Source: a virus
Taxonomy: Duplodnaviria > Heunggongvirae > Uroviricota > Caudoviricetes
Reading direction: 5' to 3' (one strand)
Length of the DNA: 64,000 nucleotides
IMG/VR virus record: IMGVR_UViG_2839610755_000002
Of this stretch, positions 15,965-59,410 are shown one piece after another. The stretch's first letter is position 1. Every line of letters begins with the position of its first letter. Below the pieces are notes generated by a model that made no database searches, was not told the origin of the DNA, and saw only the letters and a program-made list of their open reading frames with translations. Both the position numbers and the translations under genes were made by a program.

Positions 15965-16816
15965 ATGATAAATTATGTCTACGGCGAACAACTGTACCAG
16001 GAGTTCGTCAGCTTCAGGGATCTCTTTCTAAAAAAAGCTGTTGCACGCGCCCAACACGTTGATACAGCCAGCGACGGTCGTCCTGTACGCCCGGTTGTCG
16101 TTCTACCGTTCAAAGAAACTGACAGCATTCAGGCTGAAATTGATAAATGGACTTTAATGGCGCGGGAACTGGAACAGTACCCAGACCTCAATATCCCAAA
16201 GACTATTTTATATCCAGTGCCTAACATCCTTCGCGGTGTGCGTAAGGTTACAACTTATCAGACAGAAGCTGTGAACAGCGTCAACATGACCGCTGGCCGC
16301 ATTATTCATCTGATTGATAAGGACATTCGCATCCAAAAAAGCGCGGGGATCAATGAGCACAGTGCGAAATACATAGAGAACCTGGAAGCAACAAAAGAGC
16401 TAATGAAGCAGTACCCGGAGGATGAAAAATTCCGTATGCGCGTACACGGCTTTAGCGAAACAATGCTGCGCGTCCACTACATTTCCAGTAGCCCTAACTA
16501 CAATGATGGTAAATCAGTTAGTTACCATGTGCCACTGTGTGGCGTGTTTATCTGCGATGAAACTCTCCGTGATGGAATTATCATCAACGGTGAATTCGAA
16601 AAAGCAAAATTTAGCCTTTATGACTCCATAGAACCGATCATCTGCGACCGCTGGCCGCAAGCAAAAATATATCGCCTGGCAGATATTGAAAATGTAAAAA
16701 AACAAATTGCCATCACTCGCGAAGAGAAAAAGGTTAAGTCAGCCGCATCAGTTACGCGCAGCCGTAAAACCAAGAAGGGGCAGCCAGTAAACGACACCCC
16801 CGAAAGCGCGCAATAA
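15965..16816 (+). CDS. c1: C1 master repressor of lysogeny
   Basis: 283 aa, MINYVYGEQLYQEFVSF...; matches the recalled P1 C1 sequence and length. Confidence 0.9.
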   Translation: MINYVYGEQLYQEFVSFRDLFLKKAVARAQHVDTASDGRPVRPVVVLPFKETDSIQAEIDKWTLMARELEQYPDLNIPKTILYPVPNILRGVRKVTTYQTEAVNSVNMTAGRIIHLIDKDIRIQKSAGINEHSAKYIENLEATKELMKQYPEDEKFRMRVHGFSETMLRVHYISSSPNYNDGKSVSYHVPLCGVFICDETLRDGIIINGEFEKAKFSLYDSIEPIICDRWPQAKIYRLADIENVKKQIAITREEKKVKSAASVTRSRKTKKGQPVNDTPESAQ

Positions 16817-16848: not shown

Positions 16849-17966
16849 TTATTCAGCTGCCACCGGTTTTAACAAGCCAGCATCGAGCAGTTTACGCGTC
16901 AACCACTGCTGGCCTTTACCCGTTAATTGAGGCGTCAACCGTATCTGGTAGCCATCTTCATCATCCAGCACCACTTCTTTCACCGTGAAATACCCCGCGT
17001 TGATGTACTGCTGGAACGGCACATTTTTACGTCCACCGGACGCTATCAGGATGCCGTTCTCCCGTAACCAGACAAACAGCGCGTTTTGCTTAAGTCCAAC
17101 AACCTTTGCAAAATTCCCAATCAGGATCCCTTTAGCTACTGATACCCGGTCGGCAAAATCGACTTTAGGAGCGGCGGCCACCAGCTGCTGATTTAGCTGG
17201 TGGGCTTTCTGTTCCAGAAGTTGCTTTTGTTCAGCCAGTTCGGCAGCCAGGCGTAGGGCTTCAGGAAGCGTCTGGGGGATTGCGATCGGTTGCTGTTCTT
17301 TTTGTCGGAAGTAGCTGTCTTCCAGTTTTTCAAAGAATGCCCATGCCTGATCGGTTTCGAGCATTTTAGCGTGGCGGGCTGCGCCGCGTTCTGTCCAGAG
17401 GGGAGTGAGCGAACATTGCGAGCAATTTTTACAGAGTAGTTTAAAGCTACTCTGTGCTTCAACTCGCGCAATGATTCTCCTTCAACTTTGAAAAAGTGCT
17501 TCCCTTCAACAAAGCGTACTTTGTTCTCATGATGATTTTGGCGAATACGGATTGTTTCTGTCCCATACCCTCTAGCAAGAGTCTCGGTTGTCACTACACG
17601 CACTCCCTGCCATTCCAGAACGGGAATTTCATCAGACTGATTCTGAACAACCACCAGCTCCGATTCCTGAACTGAAGGTGCATGAATTTTTTCTGATTTA
17701 ACGTTAGTTGCTTTCATTCTGTGTGCCTCCTTGCGTGCTTCGGCTGCGACGGTTGCGTAATTCAGATGACCCTGTTCGAGCAGGTATTCGCGGATATCAG
17801 ACAACAGGATACGGTGAACCGCGTTCTTGTCCTTTCTCCGGTAAAGTTGTTTGGTGATCATGAAGTAGTTGGCAATAACGCCTGGTATATCCCTGGTACT
17901 GATACAGGCAGTGTGCTGTTCAATTGCCTCGATCATCTCTTCACGGGTGACTAATGACGTTCTCAT
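16849..17966 (-). pseudogene. antirepressor-like gene, copy A (shared N-terminus, ORF6N/Rha-like middle, KilAC-like C-terminus), split across two frames
   Basis: Track ORFs 17193..17966 and 16849..17364 overlap in different frames. C-terminal part has the KilAC-like motif NVPFQQYINAGYF; first 77 aa are near-identical to the 45268..46302 protein. Confidence 0.5.
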
Positions 17967-18184
17967 AGTCCCTCCTGAGCAGAAGCGTTAACAGGGAGGC
18001 ACCAGTAACTGAGAGAATTGCGTGAATCAGTGGAAAAACGGGCAGAGAAAATACATGGGGCGTCAGGAAGCTGAGAGCGGGCCTCATCTTCTGTTGGTGC
18101 AATAACGAAGTGATAGTGACGTTTTTGGCAGGAGTAAAAGCGCCAGATAAATTCAGGATGAGTTGGGGTAGGGATAGTAGCCAT
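17963..18184 (-). CDS. Icd-like small protein, copy A
   Basis: 73-aa ORF (MATIPTPTHPEFIWRFYSC...) with AGGAGG upstream; overlaps the antirepressor start by 4 nt (ATGA). Arrangement and size resemble P1 icd-ant (recalled). Confidence 0.5.
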   Translation of the reverse strand: MATIPTPTHPEFIWRFYSCQKRHYHFVIAPTEDEARSQLPDAPCIFSARFSTDSRNSLSYWCLPVNASAQEGL

Positions 18185-18502
18185 ATTGGCAGCCTCCTTA
18201 GACGTTGGTATGTAACCACCGCAGAAGAGACCAATCTTGCTGGCGGTGGACTGTACGGAGTTGGCCTTACTGGCGTCCAAGGTAACCAGCCTACCCGAAG
18301 GTAGCCCCATACAGCCCACCATTGTAGAGGTGTGCGTGTACGCCGATACAAAAAAAGACGCGAGCGGCGTCTGTATCGCCTTAGACTTAAGCGGGAGGCC
18401 AATCCCGGCACCCGTTTTAATGAGGTGCCTGATAAGCATAAACCGAAAATGCCTCAAGGCGCAAGAGGTCAGGTTCAATGTAACATCGGTAGCTAAAAAA
18501 CA

Positions 18503-18519
18503 CAATTTATTAGAGCAAA
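18503..18519. promoter_or_regulatory. C1 operator-like site upstream of icd/ant-like module A
   Basis: CAATTTATTAGAGCAAA, 15/17 match in reverse orientation. Confidence 0.55.
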
Positions 18520-18522
18520 TAT

Positions 18523-20007
18523 TCATTCATTAAGCCATGCCAGAGCTTCATCAACCTGCGCTTCGTCTTCGACGCTAAGCACTTCATCCTGGGGAACATA
18601 ATCAGCCAGCATAGCGAAACAATATGTATCCCAATGGTCTGGTGAGTGCAGGTTGAGTTTTTTCTTCATATCCTCCTTACTCATCACTTTCCATTGACCT
18701 GCGGAGTTAATCCCTACAGGGATTTTCGACGCTTCCTCAATAGTTTCATTACCCTTATCCAGTCTCATACGACCAGATTTTACGGCCTCTGCGGCTTGAA
18801 CGTTGGCATAAGCACGTTTATCAAAGTACAGGCTCTTATCTTCACGGCTATGCATCTTTTTACCCCAGCGTATACGCTGTACGGTAATACCATAATACTC
18901 GTACATCAGATCCGCCGTTGCTTTACCCAGGCCATCGCCGTCTATCGCTATGGTGATATTTGGGAATCGCTCAGGATTACATTCTGCGAAAATTTTGGCG
19001 GCAAGCTGCGTTTCTGTAACGTCTGTGTATTCCAGCATTCGATAGTTGATTACACGGCGTTTATTTCGCTGGCCGGACACCATCATGATATTGATAACGG
19101 ACTTATCCCGTCCCGTACCACCAGCAACGTCCACACATGCAAGCCAGCCCCATCCTTTTGCAATCTTGACTTTCCGCCGCGTTGCACGTTCAACCTCATC
19201 ACGTCCAAGAAGGAAGCCATCCTGTGATTTAGGGAATAGGCCGCGTACCTTAATCATGTACATAGGGTTATCGCGCCCGCCGTACTCCGCCAGCTTCATT
19301 TTGATAAATGCTGGCGTTACCAGCGGTGATTCCTCACTGTTAAGCGTGATCGCCGTATAAACGCCATCAGGGTTACCAGGACGCTTGGCCAGTTTATGGT
19401 GAGTATCGTAGAAATAGCCGCTTGGGCGTGTAGGCTGTGACAGTAATAAGATGCGGTTATCCTGTCCGGTAAGAGCACCGGTGATGATACCGAAAGCTCT
19501 ATCACTGACACCGGAGGCTTCATCGATAATATACAGAAGATGATCTGCGTGTTCACCGGCGAGAGCTTCTTCACTTCCCAGACGAAAGCCCTTCGGTACT
19601 ACAGTCCATACACCTTTACCAGTAACCTCATAGAAAGCGGTTTCTGTCAGAACAAAATAATCAGCAAGCCATGGGAAACGGCTGGTGGCAGTAGCCCAGT
19701 TTATCTTGATGTACTTGAATATACCGGTCATTACCTGCTGAATTTTGTTCGCAACGATAATGGCTCGGGCACCGGGATACATGATTATGAACAACATGAT
19801 CATGATAGAAGTCATGTCTGATTTCCCGGTACCGTGACCAGACGAAACAGATGTCTTGCTACCCTGTTCCTGCACAGACTCAATAATCAGATCCTGCTGC
19901 CAGGTAGGTGTTTTGCCGAACAAAACATCAGCGGCCGCAATCCAGTCATAACGATATAGCGCCACCAGCTCGCGCCAACGTGGATCCGTTACGCAACTTC
20001 TGGCCAT
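18523..20007 (-). CDS. pacB: terminase large subunit PacB
   Basis: 494 aa with a Walker A-like [10 protein letters not shown]; adjacent to pacA. Confidence 0.8.
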
Positions 20008-21200
20008 TAATCATCATCCCCGTATAGCTTGCGGGTAACTTCTTCGTCTTCCTCCTCGTCTTCGTCCAGGTCTTGTTCCAGCCATGGGTCGTTTGATGCA
20101 CCTTCAGTATCAACATCTCCATAACCGCCTGTATCAACGATATCGGCGATTTCTTCCCTACGCTGCTCAATCCACAATGCGGCATCCGCGCGGCGGTTGG
20201 CGGCCCGTTCTCGCGCAACTTTGTCCAGATCTTCAAGAGAAGGGCCACCGACGGCTGTTTGCCTTTCCTCATCATCGGTATTGGTCTTAGGAGCACGCAG
20301 ATCGGCTTTGATTTGCTCCAGCATCAGGGGCGGCACTTTCCCGCCATGCGCCTCGATGAATTCAGCTGCTTCCAGCACTGACCAGTTATTTTCACGCTTT
20401 CGTTCGTATGCCAGCTTAACAATGCCAGCTTGCCCCATAGATAAAGCGTGCTTTTCCGCCTCCCGGCTTTCTTTTCGATAGTTATTCCGGATGCTGTAAA
20501 TGGTGTTGATCAGGCTGCTTATCTGCGCGGAACAGCTGTTTAGCATGCTCGCGATACGATATTCAGGCGGAGTCCCTTCATCATCGTCTTTTTGCTGATC
20601 GCGCATTTCCTGCACCAGACGAATACACGTATCCCTGGCGTTCTCCAGCATAAGGAGATGAGAAAGAGACTTTTCCAGAAGAGTGGTTTCCAGAACATCG
20701 GCCCCGGACCGACGCAACATAGCGCGCGCGGCCTTCCGCGCTTCAACGTTATCTATCAGGTAATCGCCAGCTTCGAATTCAAAGCGTTCACCATCATCAT
20801 CCAGGGTGTCGCGTTCCAGGCGATCACGTAAGGTCCGGTGGGCGCGGGTGATCACGTCATGATCATCAGAACGATCATTTATGCGCTTATTTTGGCGCTT
20901 CGCATTCTCGACTGCGGCACTGACAACGGCATTAACCCTTTGTTTTTCCGCTATTTCAGCCGCAATGTGATTACCTGCATGTTGATCATTAGAGTGATCA
21001 ATGATCATGCTTTTTAGTGGCTTCCTGACTGGCTTATTTGGCTTGCGGCTGTCCGCTGTCCTGGTGTCTTCTTTGAAGGCACGGAGATAACGACGTGCAG
21101 TATTAGGGTTAAGATTAAACTCGGCGGCATACTGTGCGATGGTGTAACCACCATCTCGCGCCAGGCGAGCAAAATTCTTCTTGTGATCGTCCCAGGTCAC
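20007..21200 (-). CDS. pacA: terminase small subunit PacA (contains pac)
   Basis: 397 aa with acidic C-terminus; contains clustered TGATCA hexamers typical of the P1 pac site. Confidence 0.8.
20849..21008. other. pac: pac packaging site (two clusters of GATC-containing TGATCA/G hexamers)
   Basis: TGATCAC/TGATCA/CGATCA at about 20849-20877 and three TGATCA at about 20984-21008, roughly 110 bp apart within the 5' part of pacA. Confidence 0.75.
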
Positions 21201-46853: not shown

Positions 46854-46899
46854 AAGCGGTATCGTAAAAATCAATACAATCGCAATCATATGAATAGAA

Positions 46900-49542: not shown

Positions 49543-49618
49543 TGGTGGCCCCTACCGGACTTGAACCGGTGACCGTGCGATTATGAGTCGCCAGCTCTAA
49601 CCACTGAGCTAAAGGGCC
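49543..49618 (-). tRNA. tRNA with CAU anticodon (Ile2/Met-type; ileX-like acceptor stem)
   Basis: Hand-folded cloverleaf: acceptor GGCCCTT/AGGGGCC, anticodon loop CTCATAA, T-loop TTCAAGT, encoded CCA; coordinates approximate. Confidence 0.7.
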
Positions 49619-49645
49619 GGATTACTGCCAATTTTGCTTACGCTT

Positions 49646-50473
49646 TTATTTCACCGGAACAAACGGAACAGCGGTATTACTGGTCATATACTGCGGTAAT
49701 GTACCGTTCCATTTGTTGATCGCTTCCAAGTCCATAACACCGGGGTTCTGGCGCAGAGCTTCACCACGTAAACGAATGGCATCAGCTTCGGCCTGGGCTT
49801 TTGTGCGAATAGCATCAGCCTGTCCGGCAGCTTCCGCGCGCAGCATGTTGGCCTCTGCTTCACGTTGTTTGACCTCTTGCTCGCGTTGCAGGGTTTTTTG
49901 GTTTGCCGTGACTTTGGCGTTAATACTGTCAATAACTGTTGGCGGGTATTCTGGCTTACCTACATAAGAGAGGCTCATCACCTGAATGCCGATTGGCGTC
50001 ATTTCTTCCTGAATGTCTTTAAGGGCTGCATCAAGCAATTCAGATTTGCCACCGTCGATAAATTTGTCGGTGGTCATTTTGCTGGCTAATCGGTTCAGAG
50101 CATCTGCAACCTTCTGGCGTAGATCGGTATCAGTAATATCATCTACACCTTTGCGATAGGTCTGAAATACCGTTGTGACTTTTGCTGGATCAACCTTGTA
50201 GGCTACGCCGATGTGGTAACCAATGGTTGTTCCGTCGCTCATCTGGAAGCTGAACGGCTCATCGTATGTCTTCATTTGCTTAAAGGTCGGGAAGATATAA
50301 ACTTCAGTATTCAAGCCTGTCCAGTAGCGACCAACGCCAACTACTTCACCGATACCTTTATCATCCCCCAGCTTATTTACTTTGATCCCTACGTTACCTG
50401 GCTCTACCCGATCGCATCCGGTCAGACATAAAGAACCCAAAATAATCGCTGCACTAATCAACGTTTTTTTCAT
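49646..50473 (-). CDS. SPFH/band-7 family lipoprotein (Plp-like)
   Basis: Signal peptide with lipobox LTGC, then a prohibitin-like domain and Ala/Glu-rich coiled coil. Confidence 0.55.
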   Translation of the reverse strand: MKKTLISAAIILGSLCLTGCDRVEPGNVGIKVNKLGDDKGIGEVVGVGRYWTGLNTEVYIFPTFKQMKTYDEPFSFQMSDGTTIGYHIGVAYKVDPAKVTTVFQTYRKGVDDITDTDLRQKVADALNRLASKMTTDKFIDGGKSELLDAALKDIQEEMTPIGIQVMSLSYVGKPEYPPTVIDSINAKVTANQKTLQREQEVKQREAEANMLRAEAAGQADAIRTKAQAEADAIRLRGEALRQNPGVMDLEAINKWNGTLPQYMTSNTAVPFVPVK

Positions 50474-50690
50474 TAATTAATTTCCTGGTTTTTTCACGAA
50501 AAAAGACTACTGCGAAAGCCGGGTAAATGAGCGCGAGAAGGACTCCCAACAATACAAGTATTGTGCTGTTAGATGAGATCATATTTGGCAAAAGCCAAAC
50601 ATACAGAACCAGTGACACAATCAAACAGAGGACGGCATAAATATATAACCGCACCCATAGCGTTCGACATTTGTTCGGATTGTTCTGCAT
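50454..50690 (-). CDS. small membrane protein (Upl-like)
   Basis: 78 aa with two hydrophobic helices, overlapping the plp-like start. Confidence 0.4.
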   Translation of the reverse strand: MQNNPNKCRTLWVRLYIYAVLCLIVSLVLYVWLLPNMISSNSTILVLLGVLLALIYPAFAVVFFREKTRKLINEKNVD

Positions 50691-51563
50691 CCTCTCACTC
50701 CATTATTTAACGAATAAAAAAGCTGCGGTGCCGGGTTCCTCCCGGTGTCCTTTGGCTGGTTATCCACCGTGGACGTGGAAACAAGGAGAAATAATGGACA
50801 GATATAACCATTTCCCCGCGTGCGCTTAGCCGCATTCACCGCAACGGAAAGAGCATTCTTGGTGGACCTGTAGATTGGGATATGAACCCGTTACAGGAGA
50901 ATGCTCTTACCTGTTACGTGCTCCGTTTCGTGGAGCTAACGGCGGGTGATCAGACCGCACCAGACTGGACTTATTTCAGCGTTATGCTCATGCCAGAGAA
51001 TCAAACTGTGATGGTCGGTGCTGAACTCCGACACAGGGTTGTAGCAAGCCCCGCAAAGCGCGCACTACTGTAGTTGCGGCACATCAGCCTGTGCATTCAC
51101 CACAATGTTGAGAACACTGGTTGTCACGCGGCAACGCAACATTTATTCGTAGATTGGGATATGACCCCGTTACGCCAGTGTTCTCAACGTTGTAGTTGTT
51201 ATGCGTATTCTCTTACTAACCGCACACCAATACATTTCCCATCACGTTCATTTGTCTCGAAACGTGAATACTTAAGTTCGCCGTTAATAATCGCTGTTAC
51301 AACCCGTATCCCGTTAAACGCCCACATATTTCGCTCCATTTACACACATTACCAGTCGCCGGTTACGGTTCCGGCCAGGCCTCTTCCTCAACGGGGTGTT
51401 CTCCATACGGACTACCGTTTATTGGTCGTTCCTGCGGTTTATGTTGTGAAGCCAGATGCTTATCTTCTGGTTGCTTCTAAGATCTGCACTTCATCACAAC
51501 GGTAAGAGCACTCGATGCATTTAAGCCAGGCCCCATAAGGGAGAATGCTCTTACCTGTTATGT

Positions 51564-51639
51564 TGGTGCCGATTAACGGGATCGAACCGCTGACCATTCG
51601 CTTACAAAGCGACTGCTCTACCAACTGAGCTAAATCGGC
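51564..51639 (-). tRNA. tRNA-Thr (UGU)
   Basis: Hand-folded: acceptor GCCGATT/AATCGGC, anticodon loop TTTGTAA, T-loop TTCGATC, encoded CCA; coordinates approximate. Confidence 0.8.
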
Positions 51640-51643
51640 AATG

Positions 51644-51730
51644 TGGTGGGGAGTGATGGAGTCGAACCACCCGAGTCGCAATGACAGTAGATTTACAGTC
51701 TACCCCGCTACCCCTACGGACTAACTCCCC
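51644..51730 (-). tRNA. putative class II tRNA, Tyr-like (GUA anticodon, long variable arm)
   Basis: 87 nt: acceptor GGGGAGT/ACTCCCC, anticodon arm GTAGA-CTGTAAA-TCTAC, 15-nt variable arm, T-arm GGTGG-TTCGACT-CCATC, CCA. D-arm pairing is irregular. Confidence 0.45.
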
Positions 51731-51735
51731 TAAAG

Positions 51736-51810
51736 TGGCGATGGTGGGTGGATTCGAACTACCGACCAGTTGGTTAACAGCCAACTGCTCTACCGCTGAG
51801 CTACACCATC
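51736..51810 (-). tRNA. tRNA-Asn (GUU)
   Basis: Hand-folded: acceptor GATGGTG/CACCATC, anticodon arm GTTGG-CTGTTAA-CCAAC, T-loop TTCGAAT, CCA; coordinates approximate. Confidence 0.75.
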
Positions 51811-52301: not shown

Positions 52302-52475
52302 AAACTGGACGCTCGTAACGCACTTCGGCGTTGCCACTTAGGCGCATGGTCAACCTGGCAACTCGGTGGTTTGTCTGGGAGGACTAGGCCCAGCCATGCT
52401 TACCGCCGCGCCTGTCGCGGCTAACAGCTAAATCGCTCTATAAATCACGATTCATTGAGGTGATATTACACTAAT

Positions 52476-52492
52476 AAATTTATTAGAGCAAT
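52476..52492. promoter_or_regulatory. C1 operator, perfect consensus match, overlapping the dmt stop codon
   Basis: AAATTTATTAGAGCAAT is the exact reverse complement of ATTGCTCTAATAAATTT; preceded by ACACTAATAAATTT giving a near-palindromic double site. Confidence 0.7.
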
Positions 52493-58196: not shown

Positions 58197-59087
58197 TCAG
58201 GCTGCCAGATCATCGTTTCCGATGGAAGCATAATAAGCTTTTTCTGCTTCTGCCGGAGGAGTATGGCCCAGCCTTCCCAGCAATCGTCGATTGTTATACC
58301 AGTCCACCCACGTTAGTGTGGCCAGTTCCACTTCTGCACGGTTTTTCCAGCTCTTACGGTGTATTACCTCCGCTTTGTAAAGACCATTGATGCTCTCAGC
58401 CATCGCGTTGTCATACGAGTCGCCTGTACTCCCTGTTGATGCCAGTAATCCGGCTTCTTTTAGTCGCTCCGTATAGGCCAGTGACACATACTGAGAGCCT
58501 TTATCGCTGTGATGGATGGTGCCAGACGGACGACGGGCCCACAACGCCTGCTCCAGCGCATCCAGCACGAATGTCGTTTCCATAGACGATGAGACCCGCC
58601 ACCCCACGATGTATCCGGCAAACACATCAATGATAAACGCCACATAGACGAAGCCCTGCCATGTGCTGACGTAAGTAAAATCAGCCACCCACAGCTGGTC
58701 AGGTCGTTCTGCCACGAACTGACGGTTTACGCGGTCGCCTGCGGCAACGGCTTTCCGGCTGATGGTCGTACGGACCTTTTTACCCCGGAGAACACCGGCA
58801 AGTCCCATAACCGCCATGAGACGTGCCACTGTACATCTGGCCACCCTGATTCCTTCCCGTAACAACTGACGCCAGACTTTACGCACACCGTACACCTGAT
58901 GATTTTCATCGTATACGCGCTGTATCTCTCTCTTCAGCCAGTCGTCGTGCTGCGCACGGGCACTGCGTTTATCCGGATGATGTCGCTGTTGCTGACAATG
59001 GTAATACGTTGACGGGGCAATATGCAGTTCGCTGCATACCGGTCCGACCCCGTACTGCTCACGCAGCTTATCCAGCAGTGGCATCAT
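58197..59087 (-). CDS. IS3-family transposase OrfB
   Basis: Identical to the 41784..42674 protein. Confidence 0.85.
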
Positions 59088-59410
59088 TTTTTCCAGAGGC
59101 GGTCGAACTCCGCCTTCGCAAAATAAGCGGAAGCCTGGCGAAGGATATCGTTACTGCGGCGCAGTTCACGATTTTCACGTTCCAGCTCTTTCAGACGCTG
59201 ACGTTCAGCGCTGGTGAGCCCACCATCACCGCCCCCGGTATCCCGCTCATGCTGGCGAACCCAGACACGCAGAGTCTCCGGCGTACAGCCAATCTTTGGG
59301 GCAATGGAACAAATTGCCGCCCACTGTGAGTCATATTCATCCTGACTTTCCAGAACCATACGAATCGCCCGCTGACGGACTTCGGGGGAAAAACGAGTAT
59401 TTTTAGTCAT
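59084..59410 (-). CDS. IS3-family transposase OrfA
   Basis: Identical to the 41461..41787 protein. Confidence 0.85.

Follow-up and report, generated by a model that had tools for sequence, protein, structure and literature searches.

A C4-family antisense RNA and an IsrK-type leader RNA upstream of an icd-like antirepressor operon in a P1-like plasmid prophage

INTRODUCTION

The c4 mechanism of phage immunity has reportedly been shown in P1 and P7, and in P1 the C4 RNA is excised by RNase P as a 77-nt product. In the immunity of phage P4, processing of a leader transcript releases the small CI RNA, which is flanked by sites complementary to it, seqA on the upstream and seqC on the downstream side; CI causes premature transcription termination of the replication genes rather than masking of an antirepressor ribosome-binding site. 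The P1 RefSeq record gives the immI features in the order Oc4 (Op51), P2c4 (P51a), P1c4 (P51b), a1, b1, 77-nt C4, a2, b2, icd, and ant1. Here, we describe the leader that precedes an icd-like gene on the minus strand of a 64,000-nt stretch of viral DNA (IMG/VR record IMGVR_UViG_2839610755_000002; hereafter the window), which is a P1-like plasmid prophage. This leader and its operon, designated copy A, contain a C4-family antisense RNA that matches the ribosome-binding region of the icd-like gene, and we regard the arrangement as very probably a P1-immI-type switch. A second, classical immI module in the same window is designated copy B.

A related arrangement has been studied in the Salmonella prophage Gifsy-1, where the promoter of the small RNA IsrK drives an untranslated read-through isrK-orf45-anrP mRNA that is also the source of the stable processed RNA STnc1160 (PMC4825925). 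IsrK binds Hfq and activates translation of the antirepressor in trans, boosting that of anrP 139-fold (PMC4825925). The IsrK mutations G28A and G31A and the "orf45" mutations C162U and C159U each derepress, and the double mutants G28A/C162U and G31A/C159U regain the wild-type conformation (PMC4825925). The authors of that study liken IsrK/STnc1160 to seqA/CI of P4, not to P1 c4 (PMC4825925), and a 2025 review gives IsrK and c4 as unrelated entries. GenBank record LC710660 already has isrK and C4 annotated side by side. The insertion of an antirepressor module in the gap between pacB and c1 is known for RCS47-like plasmids, in a report that leaves RNAs unmentioned (PMC6906374).

Neither of the two RNA families is new, and the mechanism and the insertion site have also been described before. 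The novelty lies in recognizing the RNAs at this locus, in their particular specificity, and in explicitly merging isrK with the a1/b1 leader.

RESULTS

A C4 RNA complementary to the ribosome-binding region of the Icd-like ORF

Rfam covariance models were run on the whole window at curated gathering thresholds, and all four matches in the leaders fell on the minus strand, to which the coordinates below refer unless stated otherwise. The C4 antisense RNA model (RF01695) matched positions 18239 to 18326 over its entire length (model positions 1 to 87 of 87) with 75.9 bits against a gathering threshold of 45 (E = 4.7e-13). The minimum free energy (MFE) fold of this segment was the Rfam consensus structure (−41.6 kcal/mol, z = −3.5), in which a long closing stem surrounds two hairpins and a single-stranded junction. 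P1 C4 has this shape as well. The unpaired parts were a hairpin loop of 10 nt and the junction, of 8 nt. By homology to the annotated 77-nt P1 C4, which runs from GGUGGGG to CCACC, the mature C4 of copy A is predicted to comprise 76 nt (18320 to 18245). The sequence context of the P1 ends is kept: AAU immediately precedes GGUGGG on the 5' side, and CCACC closes the 3' side.

Sites were named after P1, where a denotes the loop of upstream hairpin 2, the C4 junction, and the site just after C4, and b denotes the upstream single-stranded tail, the C4 hairpin loop, and the site over the Shine-Dalgarno (SD) sequence. In copy A, b' (CCUUGGAC, 18275 to 18282) forms the loop of the second internal C4 hairpin and pairs with b1 and b2, while a' (AGGCCAA, 18261 to 18267) occupies the single-stranded junction and pairs with a1 and a2; both are unpaired in the MFE fold. 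Site a2 (UUGGUCU, 18228 to 18234) lies just downstream of C4, and b2 (CGUCUAAGG, 18204-18196) overlaps the SD sequence AAGGAGG (18199-18193) of the Icd-like ORF, whose start codon is at 18184. Pairing of CCUUGGAC(G) (18282-18274) with CGUCUAAGG yields a b':b2 duplex of 9 bp (−13.9 kcal/mol), and a':a2 is a 7-bp duplex that includes one G-U pair (−8.6 kcal/mol). The corresponding duplexes with the upstream sites are 8 bp for b':b1 (−12.4 kcal/mol) and 7 bp for a':a1 (−10.9 kcal/mol). On the minus strand of the 64-kb window, the sequence GTCYAAGG occurs at b1 and b2 only.

An earlier note on this DNA, made from the letters alone, had proposed a c4-like regulatory RNA in this leader and had named complementarity between leader segments and the ribosome-binding site of the small ORF as a thing to look for. 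Both were found, the former as the RF01695 match and the latter as an exposed C4 loop whose pairing with b2 covers the SD sequence.

An IsrK-type RNA with its own terminator upstream of C4

The isrK model (RF01394) matched a 78-nt segment at 18351 to 18428 (60.8 bits against a gathering threshold of 50, E = 1.5e-10, model positions 1 to 77 of 77). The RNA folds into three hairpins, the last of which is an intrinsic terminator (18350 to 18371) composed of a GACGC/GCGTC stem (18371-18357) with a 5-nt loop and seven T residues (18356-18350). C4 begins 24 nt downstream of this terminator. The loop of hairpin 2 presents the putative decoy site a1 (UUGGCCU, 18396 to 18402), and the single-stranded tail presents the putative decoy site b1 (GUCUAAGG, 18379 to 18386). 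The IsrK-like RNA would be the functional equivalent of the a1/b1 leader of P1. The Rfam model built for that leader (c4-a1b1, RF03163) gave only a sub-threshold score on copy A, at 18388-18441 (20.5 bits against a gathering threshold of 46.7).

A hairpin followed by a T-run about 130 nt past the operator had been pointed out previously, and it is indeed present at 18350-18371, starting 132 nt downstream; it terminates a separate upstream IsrK-type RNA, however, and is not part of c4. A terminator scan found one terminator-like site where 0.4 were expected in shuffled sequences, so that the hairpin alone is not significant; it becomes so because it is the 3' hairpin of a full-length isrK covariance-model match. 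The hairpin also lies 150 to 170 nt past the pacB stop codon, on the same strand, and has the canonical form of an intrinsic terminator, as would be expected if it merely ended the pacA-pacB late operon, or insulated the module against late read-through, and had no role in a small RNA. We consider this reading very improbable. This hairpin recurs as the conserved 3' element of isrK at lambdoid, SfV-like, Stx, and chromosomal prophage loci where pacB is absent upstream, and a conserved −10 element and the a1/b1 sites stand at a fixed distance before it. The roles of pacB terminator and IsrK terminator are compatible, and it was the exclusive version, in which the hairpin is only the pacB terminator, that was rejected on the strength of its retention in isrK loci lacking pacB.

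Conservation of the tandem and covariation of its sites

The locus was compared with 17 phage loci drawn from Stx and other lambdoid phages, SfV, phiP27, cdtI, phiv142-3, D6, RCS47, JL22, and a P7-like phage. In all 17, isrK is followed 22 to 45 nt later by C4 and then by an SD sequence and the start of an antirepressor or icd-like gene. A pattern scan of genome contigs with ATGGTGGGCTGNATGGGG returned at least 120 matches, many of them chance occurrences in unrelated phyla, and at least 15 Enterobacterales loci with C4. Spacing of isrK 20 to 65 nt upstream of C4 was seen in 17/17 phage loci and, among the matches listed, in 14 of 15 C4-bearing genome loci. Also among the matches listed, the tandem was present in E. 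albertii, Klebsiella, Leclercia, Pantoea, Erwinia, Buttiauxella, Serratia, Sodalis, Symbiopectobacterium, Phlomobacter, Chimaeribacter, and Dryocola.

Sites were extracted by sequence anchors, and cognate and non-cognate combinations of C4 and target were scored by the same complementarity search. The 19 modules compared contained 14 loop and 11 junction variants, and each module had matching sequence at all four target positions. The longest complementary run between loop and tail was 8.6 for cognate and 4.5 for non-cognate combinations (Mann-Whitney p = 1e-10); the values were 9.8 and 5.7 for the loop with the SD site (p = 5e-11), 6.9 and 3.6 for the junction with the hairpin loop (p = 4e-8), and 6.9 and 4.5 for the junction with the post-C4 site (p = 1e-9). 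When the set was enlarged to 26 modules (20 loop and 14 junction variants), Gifsy-1 among them, p values ranged from 4e-10 to 2e-15; eight of the 14 genome loci, which have a CAGG variant of hairpin 2, were left out of this set.

Individual base pairs were counted in an in-register alignment of 17 modules. Between C4 and a2/b2, 95.6% of cells were paired, 12 of 16 pairs had changed on both sides, and up to four pair types were seen per position; the covariation measure was 0.72, as against at most 0.10 in slid registers. Between C4 and a1/b1, 97.1% of cells were paired, 12 of 16 pairs were compensatory, and covariation was 0.75 against at most 0.15 when slid. By site, pairing and compensatory pairs amounted to 98.3% and 5/7 for a1:a' (columns 44-50 with 219-225), 96.1% and 7/9 for b1:b' (columns 60-68 with 204-212), 99.2% and 5/7 for a':a2 (columns 219-225 with 252-258), and 92.8% and 7/9 for b':b2 (columns 204-212 with 282-290). 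Chance or phylogeny alone is an implausible source of this covariation because many independent pair types are involved and the slid controls collapse. Folding and covariation, the check that had been suggested for the c4 proposal, thus agree with it, with a consensus C4 fold at z = −3.5 and sites that co-vary across 17 loci.

An alternative hairpin was also found at 18216 to 18249. In it, CCACCGC (18249-18243), which in C4 makes up the 3' strand of the closing stem, is instead paired with GCGGUGG (18222-18216), and a2 lies in the loop. It folds at −16.7 kcal/mol (z = −2.8), and its helix is 100% paired in the 17 loci, with 3 of 7 pairs compensatory. Its incompatibility with the C4 fold points to a conformational switch of the transcript before processing, and the alternative precursor conformations are clearly under selection.

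The same alignment bears on whether the leader codes for protein, either as a 187-aa ORF (17963-18526) or in the manner of GenBank CDSs drawn across the homologous region. The 187-aa ORF is open in the window, and SfV orf37, cdtI orf44, sal3, and Stx1_14744 annotate CDSs across the RNAs. Outside the Icd-like part, however, the ORF had no Pfam or NCBIfam match; the substitutions in the leader are base-pair compensatory rather than codon-like, many relatives have the frame interrupted, and the segment is matched by two covariance models. A protein-coding leader was rejected on these grounds and can hardly be credited. The CDSs in question extend across isrK and C4 in SfV (L006, 345-1181), 118970_sal3 (L007, 351-1493), and Stx1_14744 (L008, 477-1499), and likewise in Ayreon (L009, 345-1181) and cdtI (L010, 345-1493); they bear the labels "transcriptional regulator," "immunity region," and "antirepressor." The true start in those records is probably the ATG that follows a conserved AAGGAGGCUGCCAUCAUG.

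Two further RNA matches were noted in the comparison loci. Phage D6 (L017, 516-595) has a second C4 match of 40.2 bits (gathering threshold 45) about 470 nt upstream of its isrK-C4 pair, and the Stx2a phage Stx2_EH0505 (L016, 1432-1510) has a match to sRNA-Xcc1 (RF02221, 68.5 bits) inside or after the antirepressor gene, cut off where the compared piece of that phage ends.

IsrK and STnc1160 of Gifsy-1 as probable members of the same system

Matches to isrK and c4-a1b1 overlapped in eight of the loci (L014, L015, L016, L019, L029, L032, L048, and L083). The c4-a1b1 model covers the 5' two-thirds of the isrK element, and the two Rfam models describe the same element; both are reported at once because Rfam keeps isrK outside the C4 clan.

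The Gifsy-1 sequence was rebuilt from S7 Fig of PMC4825925, with one G restored from the mutagenesis primers, and all eleven published mutant positions carry the stated nucleotide in the result. At the position searched in the pattern scan, Gifsy-1 has GGGGCGUAUGGGG, not ATGGTGGGCTGNATGGGG. Nucleotides 109-186 fold like P1 C4, and both mutant pairs, G28-C162 and G31-C159, fall in a1 (AUUGGCGU) and a' (UACGCCAAC) as Watson-Crick partners. Gifsy-1 orf45/STnc1160 is probably a C4 RNA, and since the published compensatory mutants fall on a1:a', the pairing that covariation indicates has already been proven genetically in a relative.

The Gifsy-1 authors interpret the region differently, and their published scheme, a cis switch with an upstream open reading frame (uORF), is the main rival for the action of the upstream RNA. 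In that scheme, the read-through mRNA is inactive, with its IsrK part paired downstream; short IsrK binds the mRNA directly and opens it, the uORF "orf45" is translated from an AUG in the C4 region, and this translation drives that of the downstream gene, the C4-like segment serving mainly as cis structure and uORF. Native gels, 30S footprints, and orf45 start- and stop-codon mutants that lower activation speak for it in Gifsy-1 (PMC4825925). Copy A also offers some agreement: an open frame starts at the C4 AUG (18322), 46 codons before the Icd-like ORF and in phase with it, and the MFE fold of the complete read-through leader is the cis-paired form, with a1:a' and b1:b' both formed.

Across the loci, the C4 AUG is invariant, but its frame closes after 3 to 39 codons in about a third of them. 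P1, copy B, and the P7-like phage have 31 codons before the stop, RCS47, D6, and JL22 have 39, phi346 has 37, phiv142-3 has 3, and five chromosomal loci have 14 or 15. Closed loci include those of Pantoea, Sodalis, and Symbiopectobacterium. As this frame is not conserved, conservation of the segment was treated as acting at the RNA level, and the proposal that orf45 is a conserved coding gene was rejected, its frame being broken in many relatives. The orf45-type peptide varies exactly at the RNA specificity sites. At every locus, the C4 model recognizes the segment, and its fold resembles that of P1 C4. STnc1160 is itself a stable processed RNA (PMC4825925), and the orf45 start-codon mutations also alter the C4 closing stem. 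The cis switch leaves the co-variation of a2/b2 with a'/b' unexplained, and we judge it unlikely as an account of copy A.

Operator and promoters

A C1 repressor operator of the Op51/Oc4 type (TTTGCTCTAATAAATT, 18504 to 18519) lies directly after the pacB stop codon and has one mismatch to the consensus ATTGCTCTAATAAATT. Its geometry is that of Oc4 in the P1 RefSeq annotation, in which the operator overlaps the −35 element of P2c4/P51a. The window contains 17 C1-operator-like sites, whereas 0.86 would be expected. Two of them form a close inverted pair at 46821-46853 (Op51 of copy B), and others overlap pairwise at 52465-52492 and at 35371-35436.

Two candidate promoters follow the operator. 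The first, overlapped by the operator and similar to P51a/P2c4 (18477 to 18505), consists of TTGTGT (18505-18500), a 17-nt spacer, and TACATT (18482-18477); it falls below the scan threshold and is put forward as a candidate by analogy with the P1 annotation. The second is a candidate constitutive promoter similar to P51b/P1c4 (18435 to 18464), with TTGCGC (18464-18459) as its −35 and TATGCT (18440-18435) as its −10 element and a predicted start at 18428. TATGCT is the copy A form of a TAnnnT hexamer that ends 7 nt before the isrK +1 position and shows little or no variation at T6, A7, and T11 across the loci aligned (19/19 and 17/17). The hexamer occupies the position of the annotated P1c4/P51b −10 element (TATAGT) in P1, and in copy B the promoter scan found TTGATC-17-TATAGT at this position. 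Both copy A promoters remain candidates read from the DNA. In four chromosomal prophages of Klebsiella, Erwinia, Pantoea, and Chimaeribacter (L083, L046, L054, and L059), the isrK-C4 spacer is about 62 nt rather than 24 and holds a TATAAT-like box (GGTTATAATCCG) that might give C4 a promoter of its own.

The Icd-like ORF and a split antirepressor gene

On the minus strand, the gene order is pacA (20007-21200), pacB (18523-20007), the 340-nt leader, the 73-aa ORF, and the antirepressor gene; coi and c1 (15965-16816) lie on the plus strand and converge on the module. The 73-aa Icd-like ORF (17963 to 18184) is 80% identical to P1 Icd and scores 49.8 bits with NF033153 (cut-off 25). It had no Pfam match, and its identity comes from NCBIfam and the direct comparison with P1 Icd. 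Its stop codon overlaps the antirepressor start (ATGA), which is the P1 arrangement for translational coupling.

The antirepressor gene (16849 to 17966) is split into two overlapping parts, a 257-aa ORF (17193-17966) with an ORF6N domain (PF10543) and a 171-aa ORF (16849-17364) with a KilAC/ANT domain (PF03374). When the 371-aa Ant of RCS47 was used as a tblastn query, residues 1-187 aligned in one frame and 176-371 in another, and the comparison places an apparent frameshift near 17400 relative to RCS47 Ant. Escherichia phage vB_EcoM-673R5, which is 99% identical, annotates only the 257-aa part.

A split of this kind, set against the intact 371-aa Ant of RCS47 and repeated in the annotation of the nearest phage record, raises the possibility that copy A is a decaying remnant whose RNAs are still recognizable but whose module is inert through its broken antirepressor. 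We find this improbable. All four complementarities, the terminator, the SD sequence, the Icd-like ORF, and the ATGA overlap are intact, and the leader is 99 to 100% identical in 300 plasmids, which argues for maintenance. Each antirepressor ORF, moreover, holds a complete domain, and both might be made.

Copy B and the predicted lack of cross-reaction between the two modules

Copy B is a classical immI leader (46518 to 46868), 94.3% identical to P1 48209-48490, where its features are annotated. It comprises a C1-operator-like inverted pair (46821-46853), promoters at 46868-46840 and 46795-46767 (promoter scan and P1 annotation), and, from P1 homology, a1 (46735-46729), b1 (46721-46715), a2 (46567-46561), b2 (46538-46531), and the icd ATG (46520). 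Its C4 (46653-46568) matched RF01695 with 70.7 bits (gathering threshold 45) and contains b' (46611-46604) and a' (46597-46591); c4-a1b1 (RF03163) matched 46721-46773 with 52 bits (gathering threshold 46.7).

Three copies of a repeat had been noticed in this leader. These were recovered: the minus strand has GTTTGACAG twice, at 46729-46737 and at 46561-46569 (0.45 occurrences expected in the whole window), and the complement CTGTCAAC lies inside C4 (about 46590-46597). They are the P1 sites a1, a2, and a'. The further statement that copy B lacks a terminator stands as far as a consensus scan is concerned; the isrK model nevertheless aligns at 46679-46760 with a sub-threshold score of 43.1 bits, over a stretch that includes a weak hairpin (CCGCAG..GCGG) followed by UAUUUUU. 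Copy B has the same architecture as copy A, with the IsrK-type element in a weaker form.

The two copies are 96.7% identical from icd codon 10 through the first ~85 ant codons and 87% identical in the KilAC part, while their leaders could not be aligned with each other by BLAST. Cross pairings (C4 of copy A with copy B targets, and C4 of copy B with copy A targets) gave −0.6 to −4.3 kcal/mol, compared with −7.9 to −13.9 kcal/mol for the cognate pairings of both copies. Because copies A and B carry different, non-cross-pairing a'/b' sites, each C4 should control its own operon only. Comparison of window positions 46568-46773 with P1 NC_005856 48255-48459 (L140) showed that the key of copy B is a hybrid, in which the a sites are those of P1 (UUGACAG) and the b sites (GUACAUG) those of the P7-like phage Ro157c2YLVW, P1 having GUUAGUG.

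Two modules are also present in RCS47, JL22, D6, and vB_EcoM-673R5, and in RCS47, JL22, and vB_EcoM-673R5 the second lies in the pacB-c1 gap, as in the window. The a'/b' sites of RCS47, JL22, and D6 differ from those of copy A. We infer that possession of two modules is an advantage for such phages in immunity contests.

Distribution of the leader and other features of the window

The region is 99.2% identical to vB_EcoM-673R5 (Punavirus) and 84 to 85% identical to RCS47 and JL22; the vB_EcoM-673R5 record annotates no RNA at the leader. A 411-nt leader sequence was found in 646 PLSDB plasmids, in 300 of them at 99% identity or more, and in one Escherichia chromosome or plasmid contig (L110).

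Elsewhere in the window, two identical matches to the ALIL pseudoknot, an IS3-family frameshift signal, were found at 41742-41858 (plus strand) and 59013-59129 (minus strand), with 121.5 bits each. The pair is inverted and encloses about 17 kb with copy B and a tRNA cluster, and it could reflect a composite element or an inversion. Four tRNA genes lie at 49546-51810 (minus strand), one of which (51647-51730) is 84 nt long and scores only 41.9 bits.

DISCUSSION

We propose that transcription of copy A would begin at about 18428 from the constitutive promoter, and also further upstream from the C1-operator-controlled promoter, and that its first product would be the 78-nt IsrK-type RNA ending at the intrinsic terminator. 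Read-through would run into the tRNA-like C4 RNA, which would be excised as the predicted 76-nt species (18320-18245). C4 would expose a' in its junction and b' in its hairpin loop and pair through them with a2 and b2 on the operon mRNA. Since b2 covers the SD sequence of the Icd-like ORF, icd would remain untranslated, the antirepressor coupled to it by the ATGA overlap would stay silent, and the C1 repressor would be safe. The decoys a1 and b1 of the IsrK-type RNA would compete for C4, in cis or as an abundant short RNA in trans, and this competition would set the threshold for antirepressor escape.

Several points weigh against this scheme. The a1/b1 decoy role is only "putative" in the P1 annotation (NC_005856). 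For Gifsy-1, the authors invoke a switch in mRNA structure together with uORF translation, not titration of C4 (PMC4825925), and co-expression of STnc1160 with IsrK raised toxicity rather than lowering it, which misfits simple titration (PMC4825925). Within copy A, the promoters are weak consensus matches and the promoter scan found none on the minus strand, and the frameshift that splits the antirepressor may impair the regulated output. The covariation structure was read from one aligned member, and the sequences are related, so that the covariation measures are inflated. Expression, processing, repression, and the decoy role at this locus are steps that we infer.

Beyond the single locus, it seems likely to us that IsrK is the a1/b1 leader of the P1-type C4 system and Gifsy-1 orf45/STnc1160 its C4 RNA, that isrK, C4, and a2/b2 form one widespread and easily re-keyed RNA lock on antirepressors in which the short RNA acts as an anti-antisense sponge, and that phages with two modules could escape the RNA immunity of single-module relatives. 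At least 20 loop and at least 14 junction specificities occur in the 26 loci, which span P1-like plasmid prophages, Stx, lambdoid, and SfV-like phages, and Enterobacterales prophages. The comparison links items that databases and reviews have catalogued separately, namely, P1 c4, Rfam c4-a1b1, and Salmonella IsrK/STnc1160. Judged by it, the isrK family would have its place in the C4 clan, and the CDSs that several phage records put over these RNAs would be artefacts. Two RNA locks without expected cross-reaction bear on coexistence, exclusion, and induction among P1-like plasmid prophages, which commonly carry resistance genes. A previously unannotated 350-nt leader is now dissected as a regulatory unit, and current understanding is not overturned.

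Copy A shares with the immI operon of P1 and P7, which includes ant1/2 (Citron & Schuster 1990, 1992; Heinrich et al. 1995; annotated in NC_005856), a C1 operator, two promoters (candidates in copy A), a1, b1, C4, a2, b2 over the SD sequence, icd, and an ATGA-coupled ant; the RNA family is the same (RF01695), and Icd is 80% identical. The likeness extends to heteroimmunity, in that specificity resides in a'/b'; it is by their a or b sites that P1, copy B, and the P7-like Ro157c2 are told apart. Unlike P1 immI, copy A lies between pacB and c1 and not beside sim. Its leader cannot be aligned with that of P1 by BLAST and scores as isrK rather than c4-a1b1, a strong intrinsic terminator follows b1 where P1 has a weak one, and the a'/b' sites are different. 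The antirepressor also departs from that of P1 in having an ORF6N N-terminal part and a frameshift.

With the isrK-orf45(STnc1160)-anrP region of Gifsy-1 (Hershko-Shalev et al. 2016, PMC4825925), copy A has in common an isrK-family RNA with its terminator, a C4-like RNA after a 24- to 29-nt spacer, and an antirepressor as the regulated gene, and in Gifsy-1 the a1:a' pairing is proven by compensatory mutants. The RNA pair of Gifsy-1, however, stands directly before the antirepressor without icd, in a lambdoid prophage downstream of antQ, and its authors call the downstream segment an ORF (PMC4825925). The analogy to CI/seqA/seqC of P4 is one drawn by those authors only (PMC4825925).

Further counterparts (Venturini et al. 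2019, PMC6906374) are the second ant modules of RCS47, JL22, and pTZ20_1P, located between pacB and c1, and a related one in D6; all of these have the isrK and C4 tandem. RCS47 and JL22 match copy A in genomic position and gene order. In modules of the RCS47 type, the leader is 73 to 85% identical, the isrK-C4 spacer is 20 nt longer, and ant is intact, and the a'/b' sites of RCS47 read UUCCCUUUGACG / AGUCUCAAC, whereas those of copy A read UUACCUUGGACG / AAGGCCAAC.

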